From a virus (taxonomy: Duplodnaviria > Heunggongvirae > Uroviricota > Caudoviricetes): DNA of 43,156 bases. Below, piece by piece: positions 3,517-41,787 of this stretch. The position numbers and the translations under genes are program-made. The stretch lies in the IMG/VR virus record IMGVR_UViG_2802429223_000002. One strand, written 5' to 3'. The notes below the pieces were generated by a model that had not been told where the DNA came from, ran no database searches, and saw only the letters and a program-made list of their open reading frames with translations. Position 1 is the first letter of the stretch. Each line of letters begins with the position of its first letter.

Positions 3517-4101
3517 TTACACGGTGTCTGGTTCTTCTGGCCACTCAATATCAGGTGCAGTTGATGTATCAACACGGTTCAGCAACACCCGATACTTCTT
3601 CCAGGCTTCCAGCAACGAGGTTTCTTCCTCCGTTGCAATTTCCAGATCTGCAGCATCCTGAAGCGGCGCAATATGCTCACTGGCTACCTGCATCAGGTTG
3701 TTTTTTGTTTCTTCCGCCTCCCGGATCCGGAACAGTTTTTCTGCTTCCGTATCCTTCACCCAGGCTGTGCCGTTCCACTTCTGAAACTCCCCTTCCGGCG
3801 ATAACCAGGTAACATTTTCCGGTAACGGACCGAGTTCAGAAATAAATAACGCGTCGCCGGAAGCCACGTCATAAACCGTTTTACCCCGATGATCTTCAAC
3901 GAGATGCCACGATGACTCATCACTGTTGAAAACAGCCACGAAGCCAGCCGGAATATCTGGCGGTGCAATATCGGTACTGTTTGCAGGCAGACCTGTATGA
4001 GGTGGAATATATGCGTCACCTTCACCAATAAATTCATTAGTTCCGGCCAGCAGATTATAAATTTTTATGGTCCGTGGTTGTTCACTCATTCTGAATGCCA
4101 T
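3517..4101 (-). CDS. tfa: tail fiber assembly protein Tfa
   Basis: 194 aa, near-identical along its length to lambda Tfa as I recall it ([44 protein letters not shown]...). Confidence 0.95.
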
Positions 4102-7061
4102 TATGCAAGCCTCACAATGTAGTTAAATGCGATGTTTTTGACGGTGTTTTCCGCGTTACCAGCAGCGTTAACGGTGATGGTGTGTCCATGTGAGCCAATC
4201 GCAACAGAGTGCGTATGAGCACCAATACCGACAGTATGCGCGTGTGCACCTGCAGATGCTGCTGTGCCGGACAGTGAGTGGCTATGATTACCATCTGTAC
4301 TGGTATTAGCTAACCACCCCGTAGACATACCTACTGAGCCTTGTACCCCCCAGGTATTTTGACCTGAGCTTGTATAACCATATTGATAAGTATCTTTAAA
4401 AACACTGGGGTTAAATCGACGGCCATCTCTATGGCTGTGATTACCAGCTGCATTCGTGCTGCCACTTAAACTATGGGTATGCGCCCCGGTGTTATTCGTG
4501 GATTTAGTGCCGTAATCAAACGACGATGTGGTTTTCGTACCCAAATCCGTACTGGATGCGCTGGCGCTGTGGGTGTGCGATTTAATGCCGTCCTGTTCCT
4601 GAGACAATACGGCACGACCACTGGCGGGTTTGCCCTTAATCGTCCAGCCACGCATATCAGGGATCACGCCTGACGGATAAGCGGCTGCAAGTTTCGGGTA
4701 TGCAGATTTGTCAAAAGTCTGCCCCTGCATCAGGGCATAGCCAGACGGAACGGTATCTGATGGCCACGGGATTGGTGCGCCAGGCGGATAAAACTGCTCT
4801 GATGGCGTATAGAGTGAATAAACTGTACCGTCCGTTAACCCTTCCGGCTTATTAGCAGAATATGCTGGTGACGTATGAATCGTCACGCTGGCATTACTGG
4901 TATAATCCCATTGAATATTTACACCAGTCGCATAATTTCCGATTGCAACGTAAATATCGTAAGTATCACCAGATGTATTGACCCAGGCAAAATTTGTAAA
5001 CCCTGTCGATGTGCGCTGCCATAAAGCACCAGTAATCCCCTTCGGATTACCATTACCTGCACGTAAAACAAGTTCAGATATACCTGCCTGTTGAGGTGAC
5101 CCCACGTTAAATCCAGCGCCACCAATCAACGTAATTGAAACAACAGAACTCGCCTGTGGCATGGTTACCGTTGCTAATTTGAACCAACCAGCACCACCGC
5201 TGAATGACATTGTTGTTGAGTTAAGCGTACCAATATCTTTCGGCGTCAGTGTTATATCCGCTGAAAGCGCCTTACCATTCACCTTACGGGCAGAAGGTAC
5301 CCGACCATTCGCATTGTCATTAGCTGCTTTCACTGCTTTCGGTGTCGCAGCAAGCGTTTCAGATGTGCTGTTGGTTGCACTACTGAGCTGGACAATTCCT
5401 TTTTGTGCTGTCGTAGCGTCCTGTGCGGTGTATTTCCCGTTAGCCAGGTCATACGCGGCCTTAACGGCTTTTGGCGTTGCCGCCTGTGACTCGGAAGTGC
5501 TGTTAGTCGCACTGCTGAGCTGAACTATCCCTTTCTGTGCTGTCGTTGCATCCTGTGCGGTGTATTTCCCGTTAGCCAGGTCATACGCGGCCTTAACGGC
5601 TTTTGGCGTTGCCGCCTGTGACTCGGAAGTGCTGTTGGTCGCACTGCTGAGCTGTACTATCCCCTTTTTCGTCGTGCTCGCATCCTCAAGCGCCACGGCG
5701 GATGCAATATCCTCTGCCCGTTTTGCTGCTGTCTCGGCGCGCGTTGCCGCGGATTCCGCCGTACTTTTGCTCTGTGCTGCCGCTGCCGCACTGCCAGCAG
5801 CCTCTGTCGCCTTCGTGGATGCCGTCGTGGCGCTGCCCCTCGCTGCTGACGCCTGTCTGGTCGCCTCATCTTTTGAAGCAGACGCAGATGATGCCGATGA
5901 CGCCGCCGAACTGGCGGACGATGCGGCAGCCGTTTTTGAGGATTCTGCGCTGGTTTCCGACGCTTTCGCGTTCGTTTCGGATGTCTTCGCTGCGGAAGCA
6001 GACCTCGCTGCTGCGCTGGCCTGTTCAGTGGCTTCGCCAGCCTTCGTTGTGGCTGTTGAAGCGGATGATGCGGCGCTTTCTGCCGATTTTCCGGCGGCGG
6101 TGGCACTGACTGCTGCCTCCTCTGCCTTAATGGACGCCTCACGGGCCGATGATGCAGCTGCTGTCTCAGAGTCTGCCGCAGCTGAGGCGCTCTGTTCCGC
6201 TGCCGTTTCAGAAGACCTGGCATTCGTCTCGGACGTTTTTGCCGCCTTCACGGAATTTCCTGCCGCCGTTGCCGAGGAGGCTGCACTGCTGGCGCTTGTG
6301 GAGGCGTTCGTTTCTGATGATTTTGCCGCCTCTTTGGAGGCCGCCGCATCTCTGGCTGAAGTGGCGGCTTCTGACGCTTTCGTCGTCGCAGTGGATGCAG
6401 AAGTGGCTGCTGATTTTTGTGACGCTGCAGCATTCGTTTCTGACGTTTTCGCCGCACCGGCACTGGTGGCCGCCGCGCTTTTTGAGGACTCTGCAGCGGC
6501 AGCACTTTTTGATGCTTCAGTGGCCTTTGTTGATGCCGTTCCTGCGCTGGAAGACGCCTCCTGAGCCGAAGTCGCGGCCTGTCCGGCTGACGTGCTGGCT
6601 GCACGCGCTGAGCCTGCAGCATCAGTCGCATGGGTTGCCGCCTCACGGGCAGATGTGCCGGCATCACTGGCTGACTTCTTCGCGGCTGCCGTGTTCTGTG
6701 CCACCGCGGACGCGTTACGCGTCACCTCTTCCACCATCAGTTCAAAACGGCGCAGAGCCTCCGGACGGGCATCATCCTCCGTCATGGCACCGAGAAAATC
6801 ATTCAGCGTACCGGGTCGGGAATCTTCATACACGGTGATGGTCCCGGCATGTGACGGCGGGAATCCTTCCACCAACAGAATAACGCTGTACTGACCGTAC
6901 TCAACGTCCATGCTGTAACGCCCGGCTTCATCCGGATTTTCTGAGGCCAGCGTGTTCACCACCACCGTGGTGCTGTTACGTTTTGCTTTCAGCTGGATTG
7001 TGCAGTTCTGTACCGGTTTTCCTGTGCCGTCTTTCAGTACACCTGAAATCTTTACTGCCAT
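4101..7061 (-). CDS. stf: side tail fiber protein Stf with expanded internal repeats
   Basis: N-terminus [32 protein letters not shown] matches lambda Stf; long Ala/Ser-rich region; ATG 7059-7061 preferred over GTG 7067. Confidence 0.9.
5275..5670. repeat. three tandem ~132-bp repeats inside stf (two near-perfect, one degenerate)
   Basis: DNA repeat visible by eye; encodes [44 protein letters not shown] three times. Confidence 0.85.
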
Positions 7062-29567: not shown

Positions 29568-30452
29568 ATGAAATGCATCCGAAAACATCCAGCAATAGCT
29601 TATACAGTAATTATTTTAGTTTTTGCCTTAATATACAATTTCACTTGGAGCGTCAATCCAGATTCTTTCATTAAAAACAACGTTCTCAACTCTACACCTG
29701 TATATGATGCCGTTAATTTAGCATATGCGAACAATGAGGTAAAAAAAGAAGCTCCTGTCAGTGTTTCGAGGGAAGTATTTGCAGAGCAAATTTTAACACT
29801 TACAAATCAATTCAATAAGATAATAATTGAAAACTTAGAACTTGAAAAAACATTATCTCAGCAGCAAGAAAAATTAAAACAAATTAGTGAAAGACAATCA
29901 ATAAAGTGGGGCGAAAACACCAAAAAATACATAGCAGACAGTTTGAAAGATTTACACAAAACGCTTATCACTAAAAATAGTGAACGTACTGCCATAGCAT
30001 CTTTAAAAAACAAAACAAATGAAAGTCAGATTAACATTATGCTGGCCGACAAAGATGAAGAAATAGCCAAAATAAACCTTGAAATAGCGTATAAAGAGAA
30101 TGATGCTAATGTCTATATCTTATCTCATGTCGGCGACTTTAACGATCCAATAATCGTTAATGAGCTTGACGCAATCAATAAAGAAATTGAGAAAACAAGA
30201 ACAAAAATAATAAACAATAAAAAGAAAATAATGGAGATAAGGAGTAAATCTCAATCTATGCTGGAGAAACTCAAAAAAGATGACCTTAACTTTTGGGATT
30301 TCTTATTTTATAGCATAGGAATATCTACAACGACCACCTTTGGTGATTTGTTAGCAAATTCAAGACTTATCAGACTGATAGTTTGCGTGCAACTTTTACT
30401 ATCAATTATAGTTTTAGCTAACGTAACTCAAAGATTTTTATCAAAAAAATAA
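29568..30452 (+). CDS. membrane protein: N-terminal TM helix, long coiled-coil, C-terminal pore-loop-like motif (Q-S island gene 3)
   Basis: 294 aa; TM segment AIAYTVIILVFALIYNFTW; Lys/Glu-rich heptad region; C-terminus FLFYSIGISTTTTFGDL then hydrophobic helix RLIVCVQLLLSIIVLANV; very AT-rich. Confidence 0.55.
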   Translation: MKCIRKHPAIAYTVIILVFALIYNFTWSVNPDSFIKNNVLNSTPVYDAVNLAYANNEVKKEAPVSVSREVFAEQILTLTNQFNKIIIENLELEKTLSQQQEKLKQISERQSIKWGENTKKYIADSLKDLHKTLITKNSERTAIASLKNKTNESQINIMLADKDEEIAKINLEIAYKENDANVYILSHVGDFNDPIIVNELDAINKEIEKTRTKIINNKKKIMEIRSKSQSMLEKLKKDDLNFWDFLFYSIGISTTTTFGDLLANSRLIRLIVCVQLLLSIIVLANVTQRFLSKK

Positions 30453-36130: not shown

Positions 36131-36817
36131 GTGAAAACACTGGCAGAACGATTAAAGATAGGTAGAGAGAAAGCTGGCATGAGCCAAGCTCAACTAGCTG
36201 AAAAAATTGGACTTTCACAACAATCTGTAGCCAAAATAGAGAATGGCGAAACTCTACAACCGCGCAAAATTAAAGAAATTGCAAAAGTTTTAGGTGTATC
36301 ACAAAAGTGGTTACAACTTGGTATTGAAGACAACGCATCCATACCTGATCTTGTTGTAAAAGAAGCAGAAAGCACCGCATTAGACCCCGATATTTTCGTA
36401 AACATTCCTGTTTTAGATGTCGAGTTATCGGCAGGTAACGGATGTCTGGCTGAAATAGTTGAATCAGCTATTGACTGGTTTCCGTTAAGAAGAGCAGATT
36501 TGAGAAAATCTGGCGTATGTGCATCTAATGCCAAGATCGTAAAAATATGGGGGAACAGTTTATTACCAGTTCTCAATAATGGAGATCTTGTTGCCGTTGA
36601 TATTTCTCAAACCGTTCCTATTCGTGATGGCGATCTTTATGCCGTACGAGATGGTGTATTGCTAAGGGTTAAAATACTTATCAACTTACCTGACGGTGGC
36701 TTGATTCTTAGAAGCTTCAACAAAGATGAGTACCCAGATGAAATACTCACCTTTGAAGATAGACGAGCCAGAATTCATGTTATAGGTAGGGTATTCTGGT
36801 CATCGCGAACTTGGTAA
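36131..36817 (+). CDS. CI-like prophage repressor (HTH_XRE N-terminus, S24 LexA-like peptidase C-terminus)
   Basis: GTG start with AGAGAGGG SD; HTH (MSQAQLAEKIGLSQQSVAKIENGE) and C-terminal S24-like autocleavage domain. Confidence 0.85.
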   Translation: MKTLAERLKIGREKAGMSQAQLAEKIGLSQQSVAKIENGETLQPRKIKEIAKVLGVSQKWLQLGIEDNASIPDLVVKEAESTALDPDIFVNIPVLDVELSAGNGCLAEIVESAIDWFPLRRADLRKSGVCASNAKIVKIWGNSLLPVLNNGDLVAVDISQTVPIRDGDLYAVRDGVLLRVKILINLPDGGLILRSFNKDEYPDEILTFEDRRARIHVIGRVFWSSRTW

Positions 36818-37690
36818 TGCATCGAAAAGCATTTCTTCAGAAATAATTTTAAGTTTTGCACCATTATCATCCCTATAAGATATAGCTTTTTCGATCTTCC
36901 TTCCGTGACTTGAGAATTTCCAATCACGGGAGGAAAGCGTCCCAATTACTAAAAAATCCAACTTTTGAGTAATTCCACTACTGATGTTCCCACCAGCATT
37001 TTTAATCAAATTTTCAACTACGGCTCTCTTTCCTGCAACAAAAGTGCCTGTAAGACAATAGGTTTTACCCTCTAACTCTATCGAAGCCCCTACATCAATA
37101 GGCAGCCTGGTCGCCAAACCATCCACCACCCCACTTTCCAAGTCACATCCTGTGAAGTCTACTAATGCCTTATGTAGAGTTAAACTCTCATCTTCAGTAA
37201 TAACCCCATCTTTAAGAATTTCCTTTACAAGTGCATAAAGTTTTTTTCCTGGGTAGTTGTTCTTCAAAGCTCCATTTTGCTCAAGCCACCAATTAAGATA
37301 TCTTATTTCTTCTTGAGTTAAGTTCCGATCAGCAATTAATCCTTTACATAGTCCATTAAGTAAATGGACATCTACATCCTTGGAGTAAAAATCAATTTCA
37401 GGGATATCAAGAATTTCCCTCTGTATTTGGAGAAGGCTATTTTTAAGGTCATCACGTTCTTCTGATGTGATTATTCCATCCGCAAGAATATCCGACACCC
37501 GTGCTGATAGACTTTTTATAACTCCATTATTGATAATCTGCTTTGCTTCAAGTACCCATGTATCTAAGTAAAGAACCTCCTCTTCACGGACAACTCCATC
37601 TGCAATGATTCCATCAATGATGCTAATCAAGTTAGCAAATAACTTGTCCCGGTTCTGTGTGTAATTAAAAGCGTAAAGCGCGTCTTCCAT
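36800..37690 (-). CDS. tandem-repeat protein with C-terminal BRCT-like domain (rex-slot cargo gene)
   Basis: 296 aa from ATG 37690 (AGGAGG SD); four ~40-aa repeats (IADGVVREEEVLYL / LADGIITSEERDDL / IADRNLTQEEIRYL / LKDGVITEDESLTL) then GKTYCLTGTFVAGKRAVVENLIKNAGGNISSGITQKLDFLVIG, which resembles NAD-ligase BRCT domains; AT-rich. Confidence 0.6.
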   Translation of the reverse strand: MEDALYAFNYTQNRDKLFANLISIIDGIIADGVVREEEVLYLDTWVLEAKQIINNGVIKSLSARVSDILADGIITSEERDDLKNSLLQIQREILDIPEIDFYSKDVDVHLLNGLCKGLIADRNLTQEEIRYLNWWLEQNGALKNNYPGKKLYALVKEILKDGVITEDESLTLHKALVDFTGCDLESGVVDGLATRLPIDVGASIELEGKTYCLTGTFVAGKRAVVENLIKNAGGNISSGITQKLDFLVIGTLSSRDWKFSSHGRKIEKAISYRDDNGAKLKIISEEMLFDALPSSR

Positions 37691-37744
37691 ACAACCTCCT
37701 TTTTTTGATAATCCTTGCACTCCTTGGCTACTCGTTCAAACCAC

Positions 37745-37800
37745 ATAAAGTTGTTGACAACATTCAAAACCACAACTAAATTACAACTTAAAGGTGTTAA
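37745..37800 (+). promoter_or_regulatory. OL/pL-like operator-promoter: -35 TTGACA inside 11-bp palindrome TGTTGACAACA, -10 TAAATT
   Basis: Palindrome 37752-37762; -35 37754-37759; 17-nt spacer; -10 37777-37782; operator half-sites AAGTTGT / ACAACTT shared with the OR region. Confidence 0.55.
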
Positions 37801-37898
37801 AACAACGAACAGGCAGGACGCCCACGAAGTAGCCGCCTAGGGCATATGAAGTCCAGGATGATTCGTTAGCAACAAAAAAGCGCCCTACAGGACGCTTA

Positions 37899-37910
37899 GC
37901 TCTTTAACAA
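37899..37910 (+). promoter_or_regulatory. boxA-like antitermination element (GCTCTTTAACAA)
   Basis: 12-nt match to the rrn-type boxA core, about 110 nt downstream of the pL-like promoter and 45 nt upstream of the first early-left gene. Confidence 0.45.
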
Positions 37911-37955
37911 TCTGGTCCCCATCAACAAGTAACTGATAACTTGAGGAGGTGTGAA

Positions 37956-38162
37956 ATGCACAAAACAGAACCAAAAATCGTCGCACCCGGATACACAAAT
38001 GAGGAAATTTACGAGTGGATGGCAAAGAAGCTGGCAGCTATAAACCAGCTTCGTGAAGTGCTGTCTTATCGACAGGAAACAATAGACTCCTTAAAAAAAC
38101 TGGATCAGGAAATCACGGTTTTATCACAGGATGTTACTTTAGATATTGTGCAGACAAATTAG
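37956..38162 (+). CDS. hypothetical small protein, first gene of early-left operon
   Basis: 68 aa from ATG 37956 with GAGGAGG SD 5 nt upstream; not Arg-rich, so not recognisably N-like. Confidence 0.5.
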   Translation: MHKTEPKIVAPGYTNEEIYEWMAKKLAAINQLREVLSYRQETIDSLKKLDQEITVLSQDVTLDIVQTN

Positions 38163-38568
38163 GATCCCATTCATTTTCGTCAAAATCATCAAAGTGATGA
38201 ATTTGTGATCTCCAGTCTCGATAATCTAAAAATTTCTGGGCGGTTACGCTTATTTTATCAAGCGTGAGTTCATCCTGAATTGAAAGAAGAAGTTCATCAA
38301 ATTTCATCTCATTAATCTGTTTTGGCATCCAGTGATGCTTCATCAGAATAAGGTGAACCAGAGCTTTTTTCCCATTCAACTGATTATAGGGAGTGCCGAA
38401 TTTCTTCCGGTGCTCATGTAAGACAAGGTCCAGAAGAGTAAGTAATGTTGCCCTTGATTCAACTTTGCTTATTTCGACTGATGACACTACCCCACTGATT
38501 TCAATGCCCCGATACTTTCCAACATTTTCACAGTGGGATTTGTACAGCGTATAGATATTACCGGACAT
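38134..38568 (-). CDS. hypothetical protein, antisense to the early-left operon (moron candidate)
   Basis: 144 aa, AAGGA SD before ATG 38568; AT-rich; own upstream region carries tandem direct repeats. Confidence 0.5.
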   Translation of the reverse strand: MSGNIYTLYKSHCENVGKYRGIEISGVVSSVEISKVESRATLLTLLDLVLHEHRKKFGTPYNQLNGKKALVHLILMKHHWMPKQINEMKFDELLLSIQDELTLDKISVTAQKFLDYRDWRSQIHHFDDFDENEWDPNLSAQYLK

Positions 38569-38584
38569 TTCTTTTCCTTTTGCG

Positions 38585-38635
38585 TTGTTGGGGATAACCA
38601 GATTAACCGAATCCTTGTTGTTGGGGAATAACCAG
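38585..38635. repeat. two direct repeats TTGTTGGGGA(A)TAACCAG, 33 bp apart
   Basis: Copies at 38585-38601 and 38618-38635, 20-70 nt upstream of the minus-strand gene start at 38568. Confidence 0.8.
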
Positions 38636-38854
38636 GTCCACCTCGCCTGATGTGGCTAAAAGCAGGCACATAACAGCTAAGTATTTTCAACCAGAGAGAA
38701 TTCTTAGCGTTGTGGTGAATGCGGCTCAGCGCACGCGGGTTAAGGTTGAGGCTGACAGTCGACCTTCTGTGGATACCCACCCGTCTGGTGTGCAACCTTC
38801 GCCAGGCACCGGGAGGCACCCGGCACCACAACTTTATGCTGTGTGTAGTCCTGG

Positions 38855-38899
38855 CGGTACCAGTTTGTACCCTTGCTTCCGGCTGGTACCGTCCTTTTT
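38855..38899 (+). terminator. terminator-like hairpin and T5 in early-left operon
   Basis: 9-bp stem CGGTACCAG / CTGGTACCG with 19-nt loop followed by TCCTTTTTA. Confidence 0.45.
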
Positions 38900-39020
38900 A
38901 CAAAACAGAGAAGAGCATCACCGGACGACGGGCTCATAACCCAATCCATCCGGGCGGCTACCACCGCAGGTGTTCTTCTCTGTTTTGTGGAGAAACTAAC
39001 CGCCCCTACGGGGGCATTTA
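38900..39020 (+). other. hairpin-dense non-coding stretch (15-bp perfect inverted repeat plus GC tetraloop hairpin); candidate structured RNA or regulatory site
   Basis: ACAAAACAGAGAAGA (38900-38914) pairs perfectly with TCTTCTCTGTTTTGT (38974-38988); GCCCC-TACG-GGGGC hairpin at 39002-39015; overlapping ORFs lack RBS. Confidence 0.4.
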
Positions 39021-41711: not shown

Positions 41712-41787
41712 TGGTGCCGATAATAGGAGTCGAACCTACGACCTTCGCATTACGAATGCGCTGCTCTACCAACTGAGCTATATCGGC
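41712..41787 (-). tRNA. thrW: tRNA-Thr (anticodon CGU)
   Basis: Reverse complement reads GCCGATATAGCTCAGTTGGTAGAGCAGCGCATTCGTAATGCGAAGGTCGTAGGTTCGACTCCTATTATCGGCACCA: cloverleaf with CGT anticodon and 3' CCA; matches E. coli thrW as recalled. Confidence 0.95.

Follow-up and report, generated by a model that had tools for sequence, protein, structure and literature searches.

What a pair of short direct repeats is doing in front of a small gene that runs against the early-left operon of a prophage is the question raised by IMG/VR record IMGVR_UViG_2802429223_000002, a Caudoviricetes sequence of 43,156 nt that is referred to here, over its whole length, as the window. The gene, ORF144, appears in the list of open reading frames (ORFs) as a 144-aa coding sequence (CDS) with an ATG start on the minus strand (38134-38568), encodes an ECs1072-family phage-associated protein and is preceded, 6 nt 5' of the ATG, by a Shine-Dalgarno (SD) sequence AAGGA, read directly from the minus strand (38575-38579). 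In an E. coli prophage of 99% identity the NCBI Prokaryotic Genome Annotation Pipeline (PGAP) calls the same CDS, under the name 'ECs1072 family phage-associated protein', and the 144-aa minus-strand ORF with a good SD proposed in an initial annotation of this DNA stands. The gene is AT-rich, as also stated there (38.2% GC against 50.2% for the whole window), and it is indeed antisense to the plus-strand operon transcribed from the pL promoter, overlapping by 29 nt the 3' end of the first early gene, which encodes 68 aa. A terminator scan located the intrinsic terminator that closes the minus-strand unit (AAGCGTCCTGTAGGGCGCTT then TTTTTGTTGCT; 37868-37897, read 37897->37878), which is kept, with changes in the stem, in an E. 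albertii relative (L005) and marks the left edge of a variable cassette. In phages SfV and SfII the flanks of the cassette are kept (the pL leader to ~37866 and a GC-rich block from ~38660) and the middle is replaced by other minus-strand genes; with its conserved flanks and replaced interior, the ORF144 unit behaves as an exchangeable moron. These replacements, the terminator of its own, and a slot and orientation like those of the lysogen-expressed sieB in phages P22 and lambda agree with the counter-transcribed moron first proposed, and ORF144 is a true moron, an accessory gene carried by an SfIV-like lambdoid prophage.

The two copies of TTGTTGGGGA(A)TAACCAG reported upstream of ORF144 were found again, with starts 33 nt apart, as a proximal repeat at 38585-38601 (TTGTTGGGGATAACCAG, which the minus strand reads as CTGGTTATCCCCAACAA) and a distal repeat at 38618-38635 (TTGTTGGGGAATAACCAG), both listed for both strands and having the exact 11-mer GTTGTTGGGGA in common; only 0.08 chance matches to the 18-mer repeat pattern are expected in the window. 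The repeats are, however, only the middle of a longer conserved element that extends to 38670 and that, as judged by alignment, is homologous to the sieB leader, or sas locus, of P22 and lambda. This sas-type antisense-RNA module (~109 nt; 38562-38670, plus strand) is the complement of the start codon, SD, 5' untranslated region (UTR) and promoter of ORF144. A covariance model (R1), whose training alignment included the window and P22 and left lambda out, scored 91.3 bits in the window (38562-38670, E=2e-19), 91.0 bits in lambda and 94.8 bits in P22, and an nhmmer profile of 19 double-loop elements taken from the same alignment found one copy only in the window (38569-38670, plus strand, E=1e-23). 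The module aligns over its full length with the P22 sas RNA.

The P22 element can be written GTGCCTG TCTTTTAA CCACGTCAGGCTCGGTGG TTCTCG TGTACCCCTACAG CGAGAA ATCGGATAAA CTCT ATTCACCCCTACAG AGAG ... ATG, and the P22 record annotates the sieB promoter (29690-29720), RNA start (29727) and CDS (29758) within it, promoter and RNA start falling within or between the two repeats. In P22, sieB runs against the pL operon within which it lies, next to gene 24, and lambda has the same element in front of its own sieB. The sequence of the antisense RNA sas is given in a 2026 small-RNA survey of P22-infected Salmonella (PMC13397905) and is the exact complement of the P22 element; the complementarity reaches from the start codon of sieB, across the two repeats and the hairpin, as far as CAGGCAC. 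According to reviews, sas switches sieB translation from SieB to Esc, whereby P22 escapes its own exclusion (PMC12197685, PMC7067206). ORF144 resembles sieB of P22 and lambda in being counter-oriented near the start of the pL operon and in an upstream element homologous over ~110 nt, with twin CCCC/GGGG repeats, hairpin and CAGGCA end; the strand complementary to its leader corresponds to the sequenced sas RNA of P22. In the E. albertii relative the protein is 72% identical and the upstream element nearly identical. In Rfam, neither the repeats nor the module had a match at the gathering threshold or at E<=5, the nearest match being a sub-threshold STnc100 in the adjacent GC-rich block. The ST64B gene STMMW_20121, an expressed antisense moron (PMC7067206), was considered as transcript evidence and set aside, the module being absent at the equivalent place in ST64B.

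Alignment to the P22 annotation also places a putative ORF144 promoter on the same features as that of P22 sieB. A -35 sequence TATTCC is predicted inside the distal repeat (38630-38625, minus strand) and, after a 17-nt spacer, a -10 sequence GTTAAT between the repeats (38602-38607, minus strand), aligned with GATAAA of the P22 sieB promoter. The transcript would then start at ~38593-38595, in the proximal repeat, with a 5' UTR of ~27 nt.

Three helices were proposed on the plus (antisense) strand of the module, drawn by hand and then tested on 44 distinct sequences; RNAalifold on a MAFFT alignment gave a poor consensus. The helices were paired in 92.6% of cells, compared with 37-46% when the partners were slid by 1-3 columns, compensatory changes on both sides occurred at 14 of 21 pairs, and none of 500 shuffles reached any of these measures, although the counts are somewhat inflated because the alignment was partly fitted to the proposed structure. 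Helix 1, the stem of stem-loop 2 (SL2; CCUUGUUGUU-GGGG-AAUAACCAGG, 38613-38636, plus strand), carries a GGGG tetraloop (38623-38626) and has one U-C mismatch in the window copy; the distal repeat, read on the plus strand, makes up most of it, and it was paired in 90% of cells with both-side changes at 9 of 11 pairs. The other GGGG loop of the module lies at 38590-38593. The 3' domain (38638-38667, plus strand) is composed of two interleaved helices, one pairing CCAC (38638-38641) with GUGG (38652-38655) and the other GCCUG (38645-38649) with CAGGC (38663-38667). Double changes were seen at four of the five pairs of the former, helix 2 (CCAC(C)/(G)GUGG). Helix 3 (GCCUG/CAGGC) was 99.5% paired and nearly invariant, with compensatory GCCGG(G)/(C)CCGGC at loci L014, L115, L157 and L256 and G-U variants at L008 and L148. 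The interleaving of helices 2 and 3 suggests an H-type pseudoknot in the antisense orientation, with a loop 1 of ~3 nt and a loop 3 of 7-12 nt. Because G-U cells outnumbered A-C cells (71 versus 17), the early-operon strand pairs better than the cargo-sense strand (92.6% against 86.4%), and this excess favours the early-operon (antisense) strand as the selected structured RNA. By eye, the CCACC hairpin was also considered as a sigma-54 promoter or as a terminator, and both were rejected: its spacing varies across loci and no U-run follows it on either strand.

The module is not confined to this gene. Distant ECs1072 relatives carry a longer upstream element of the form TGCCTG, T-rich stretch, CCACC..GGTGG, loop(s) and SD, and a scan of IMG/VR for TGCCTG-N7-12-CACYTCAGGCGG returned at least 120 loci; in nearly all of the matches listed, an SD and a start codon come at a constant distance after the element. 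It exists in single-loop and double-loop forms, many loci being single-copy, and the two repeats first noticed in the window are the two loops of the double-loop form. The downstream ORFs (58-190 aa; L016-L135) fall into at least 33 unrelated clusters, among which the ECs1072 type is the largest in the matches listed and SieB-like proteins are also present; when ten cargo representatives were scanned, only SieB (PF14163) and DUF1883 gave Pfam matches above cutoff, and PADLOC matched none of the ten. Several contigs (L148, L036, L076, L082, L130 and L030) carry two sas-type modules 0.5-6 kb apart, which points to neighbouring moron slots with the same control element.

The ECs1072 family is already catalogued, and the control element has been described from P22 and is present in lambda. 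The broader multi-cargo pattern is the more interesting lead than the locus itself. A literature search found no account of the element as a widespread multi-cargo cassette, which is not proof of absence. We tentatively propose, with rather more doubt than conviction, that the sieB/sas element is a portable and self-contained 'lysogeny-on / lysis-off' cassette, in which a weak promoter is combined with a structured antisense RNA having G-rich loops and a 3' pseudoknot, that it has been disseminated among lambdoid and P2-like prophages of Enterobacterales with dozens of unrelated small proteins as cargos, nearly all of them uncharacterised, and that the ECs1072 family could be a novel effector of exclusion or abortive infection, cytoplasmic and with an unmatched fold. 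If so, the module sequence would be a search handle for many prophage genes whose silencing is needed for the phage's own growth, and could be used as a guilt-by-regulation marker, since genes wired for expression in the lysogen and for silence during lytic growth are strong candidates for functions in exclusion, abortive infection or other harm to phages. For the locus itself, what looked like an odd "promoter repeat" can now be recognised as an element with a proposed mechanism that can be tested, that of the antisense switch by which P22 escapes its own SieB.

The cargo carried here is a full-length member of the ECs1072 family, or PHROG 5286: ORF144 matched NCBIfam NF033230 over profile positions 2-142 of 142 with 157.8 bits (E=1.7e-46; curated cutoff 70 bits) and PHROG 5286 with E=1.5e-90. 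NF033230 is labelled 'hypothetical equivalog' and has no assigned function. Library scans with ORF144 gave no Pfam or PADLOC match, and no long hydrophobic segment or membrane segment was apparent on reading the sequence. The AlphaFold2 (AF2) model built from 48 sequences is all alpha-helical (predicted local distance difference test, pLDDT, 94.1; predicted template modelling score, pTM, 0.88), and no structural relatives of it were found in the PDB or BFVD. A word-indexed search recovered few relatives and a related-locus search with a narrow protein alignment one distant locus only; a HMMER scan of 1.84 billion representatives recovered 76 clusters at E<=0.001, mostly of ~145-155 aa, from Escherichia, Salmonella, Yersinia, Pectobacterium, Proteus, Morganella, Pantoea and Serratia. 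Hundreds of the sequenced prophages of E. coli and Shigella encode a member of the family. ECs1072 itself was listed as differentially expressed in cultures of O157 Sakai in a microarray table (PMC2241611), and our literature search on the family found nothing beyond that one entry. Homology and structure prediction, put forward with the initial annotation as checks, have thus yielded 76 homologue clusters and an all-helical model that matches no solved fold, and the "function unknown" given there is still true of a family that is catalogued and uncharacterised.

ORF144 therefore combines the control system of sieB with a different cargo, having no PF14163 match and, among 48 relatives, no conserved in-frame internal Met near the N-terminus from which an Esc-like product could be made; unlike SieB, it also lacks membrane segments and has a different, unmatched fold. 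In seven of seven distinct contexts fetched, P2-like phages included, the ECs1072-family gene was counter-oriented within the early operon, lying between the repressor and the RdgC/YfdP/exonuclease genes in lambdoid prophages and inside the cox-to-gpA operon in P2-like prophages. In the window, the neighbouring early gene (37956-38162, plus strand; PHROG 1744) is convergent with ORF144, and its 68-aa product belongs to a family with the motif EPxIxxG...W[LM]. This differs from P22 and lambda, in which the neighbour is N/gp24 and not a non-basic 68-aa protein whose gene overlaps the 3' end of the cargo. Convergent and usually 3'-overlapping homologues of the 68-aa gene were found beside 28 of 33 ECs1072-family genes, in lambdoid and P2-like prophages alike; L004, L066 and L220 have ECs1072 genes with no such homologue. 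The 68-aa family also occurred 26 times without an ECs1072 gene, beside other module-borne cargos in the cases inspected, and is therefore probably part of the conserved frame and not a cargo-specific partner. Across lambdoid and P2-like prophages the 68-aa protein was found adjoining the module-borne gene whatever the cargo, and convergent with it in the cases inspected.

From this evidence we consider it probable that ORF144 is a moron expressed in the lysogen and controlled in the manner of sieB/sas, its translation silenced by antisense RNA once pL fires. In the lysogen, with pL repressed, ORF144 would be transcribed leftward from its own weak promoter, whose -35 lies inside the distal repeat and whose -10 falls between the two copies; the RNA would begin in the proximal repeat and run to a stop at 37897-37878. 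In the lytic phase, transcription from pL would cross the cassette on the opposite strand and give rise to a ~110-nt sas-like antisense RNA (38562-38670) made up of two G-rich stem-loops (the 'repeats') and the pseudoknot-like 3' domain. This RNA would pair with the 5' UTR, SD and start codon of ORF144 and turn translation off, and convergent transcription may contribute to the shut-off. The phage would silence the protein for the sake of its own lytic growth, the protein being most likely a cytoplasmic factor of exclusion or abortive infection, a role deduced from the wiring of the cassette and from the presence of SieB among its cargos; that the ORF144 cargo harms lytic growth in this way is a plausible suggestion, to which we give slightly less than even weight.

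Several points weigh against this scheme. In P22, sas could be produced either by read-through from pL or from a promoter of its own. The minimum free energy (MFE) of the window antisense RNA is no better than that of shuffled sequences (z = +0.98, compared with -2.0 for P22 sas), SL2 is mismatched in the window copy and stem-loop 1 (SL1) is weak in its subfamily, so that the stems are weaker here than in P22 sas. As its second stem is almost invariant, the pseudoknot rests on few compensatory variants. The predicted -10 and -35 are poor matches to consensus, and a generic promoter scan found no minus-strand promoter at that place. ORF144 is not a SieB homologue, having neither membrane segments nor an Esc-like internal start, and no match in PADLOC, Pfam, PDB or BFVD backs a role in defence.

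The repeats had originally been read as a regulator-binding array, and operators for a DNA-binding regulator acting on the ORF144 promoter, whether the phage repressor, the 68-aa protein or ORF144 itself, would account for two direct copies placed about three helical turns (33 nt) apart just 5' of the gene, overlapping the predicted -35 and +1, sites at which repressor action would be expected, and for a third, inverted partial copy before the convergent 68-aa gene. We regard this reading as very unlikely. The repeats (TTGTTGGGGA) are unrelated to the operator-like repeats at pL (ACCACATAAAGTTGT / ACAACTTAAAGGTGT), many loci have a single copy, and ORF144 has no recognisable DNA-binding domain. 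Twin repeats with the invariant GGGG/CCCC core are present in two copies in heteroimmune phages (lambda, P22, SfIV-like phages and others), and the core is kept before more than 30 unrelated cargos, which makes a phage- or cargo-specific regulator unlikely. The flanks of the repeats covary as the arms of RNA helices with a G-U excess on one strand, as expected of RNA and not of a site bound by protein. The element might, alternatively, be just a portable promoter and 5' UTR, with the complementary RNA a by-product of read-through from pL and shut-off due to transcriptional interference alone. In its favour, the element contains the annotated promoter and RNA start of P22; TGGTATCTT, conserved in single-loop relatives, resembles an extended -10 when read by eye, the window antisense RNA is not predicted to be unusually stable, and a convergent layout can by itself interfere, as at the Tha/Ith locus (PMC11087260). 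Such a reading is nevertheless improbable in our view, since conservation runs ~40 nt upstream of the -35 and takes in two interleaved compensated helices, for which a promoter has no need, since the excess of G-U indicates selection on the antisense strand as RNA, and since a discrete sas RNA accumulates in P22-infected cells (PMC13397905) and reviews report a switch in sieB translation.

Compatible with control by RNA is a further proposal, in which ORF144 and the 68-aa gene would be a toxin/antidote or defence/anti-autoimmunity pair, the small early protein, and not an RNA, neutralising ORF144 while the phage grows lytically. It draws on the 28 of 33 ECs1072 genes with a convergent 68-aa homologue in lambdoid and P2-like prophages, and on a layout like that of the Tha/Ith noncontiguous operon of Staphylococcus aureus prophages, in which mutually exclusive lysogenic and lytic expression avoids autoimmunity on induction and Ith neutralises Tha (PMC11087260). 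In both cases a prophage gene is overlapped by a small one on the opposite strand. Neither the organisms nor the proteins are related, however, and Tha lies in the cI operon with the antisense small gene encoding its inhibitor, whereas here the accessory gene is itself antisense and the proposed shut-off is RNA-based. The 26 occurrences of the 68-aa family with no ECs1072 gene, beside other cargos of the same module where inspected, and the three ECs1072 genes with no 68-aa homologue (L004, L066 and L220) also speak against a dedicated pair, which we hold to be quite unlikely. Least credible, and rejected, is an RNA antitoxin array of a type III (ToxIN-like) toxin-antitoxin system before an endoribonuclease toxin. 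Short, tandem-looking repeats do stand directly 5' of a small AT-rich phage-associated gene, but only 17-18 of every 33 nt are repeated, so that these are not head-to-tail units, the terminator scan found no terminator between repeats and gene, the protein has no ToxN/AbiQ-type, PADLOC, Pfam or solved-fold match, and many relatives are single-copy.

The inverted partial copy of the repeat (AATCTGGTCCCCATCAACAAG, 37909-37929, plus strand), which like the minus-strand terminator is absent from the initial annotation, is 75% complementary over 20 nt in one match (I5) and 93% over 14 nt in another (I6). It follows immediately on a boxA-like sequence (GCTCTTTAAC; region 37899-37929, plus strand) and precedes the SD of the 68-aa gene, and a similar boxA/partial-repeat layout is present in the unrelated prophage L004 (~4540-4590), downstream of its ECs1072 gene. 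Inverted matches as large as this one are common locally, 13 pairs being listed, and the copy could reflect pairing of a sas-like RNA with the early leader or could be due to chance. A mobile cassette with terminal inverted repeats, of which this copy would be the left one, was considered and discarded, as such matches are common and the left copy is part of a boxA leader, as in L004.

The window as a whole is an SfIV/SfV-like lambdoid prophage, with 98.6% identity to Shigella phage SfIV over the region, and at least 80% of it is present in 404 complete E. coli genomes. The integration site adjoins a tRNA-Thr gene, found at the prophage end (41715-41787, minus strand). A CI-type repressor gene (36131-36817, plus strand) precedes the pL-like promoter TTGACA-17-TAAATT, which a promoter scan placed at 37754-37782 (plus strand) with operator-like inverted repeats on both flanks; yfdR-like genes, xis and int lie further along from pL and the 68-aa gene. 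As all of these, from the repressor gene to int, are on the plus strand, the plus strand is the early-left direction. At the other end of the window, a full-length match to the Rfam IS009 RNA was found at 3560-3758 (minus strand, 225.9 bits).

Between the repressor gene and the pL promoter, on the other strand and in overlap with the 3' end of cI, lies a gene for a 306-aa BRCT-domain protein (36800-37720, minus strand; PF00533, E=1.5e-6; PHROG 3989) that weakly matches the PADLOC candidate system PDC-S48 (E=2.5e-7). Its position is that of bstA in BTP1, and it is likely to be a second lysogeny-expressed accessory gene. The first ~65 nt of the pL transcript (37801-37866, plus strand; AACAGGCAGGACGCCCACGAAGTAGCCGCC...GATGATTCG) are conserved at 81-97% identity and also occur in SfV, SfII, ST64B, ZF40, YeP1-3, mEp237, mEp460, phiNP and Klebsiella phages, where they are mostly unannotated; as phages with this leader have no obvious N gene after pL, a cis-acting leader RNA, for example an antiterminator, is worth considering. 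The GC-rich (54.6%) block beyond the module (38671-39005, plus strand), which may be coding or a structured RNA, is conserved in many phages. Its STnc100 match scored 41.9 bits (E=2.4e-7), below the gathering score of 47, and annotations of the block differ, calling it YfdP (PF27127), a hypothetical protein or a frameshifted pseudogene.

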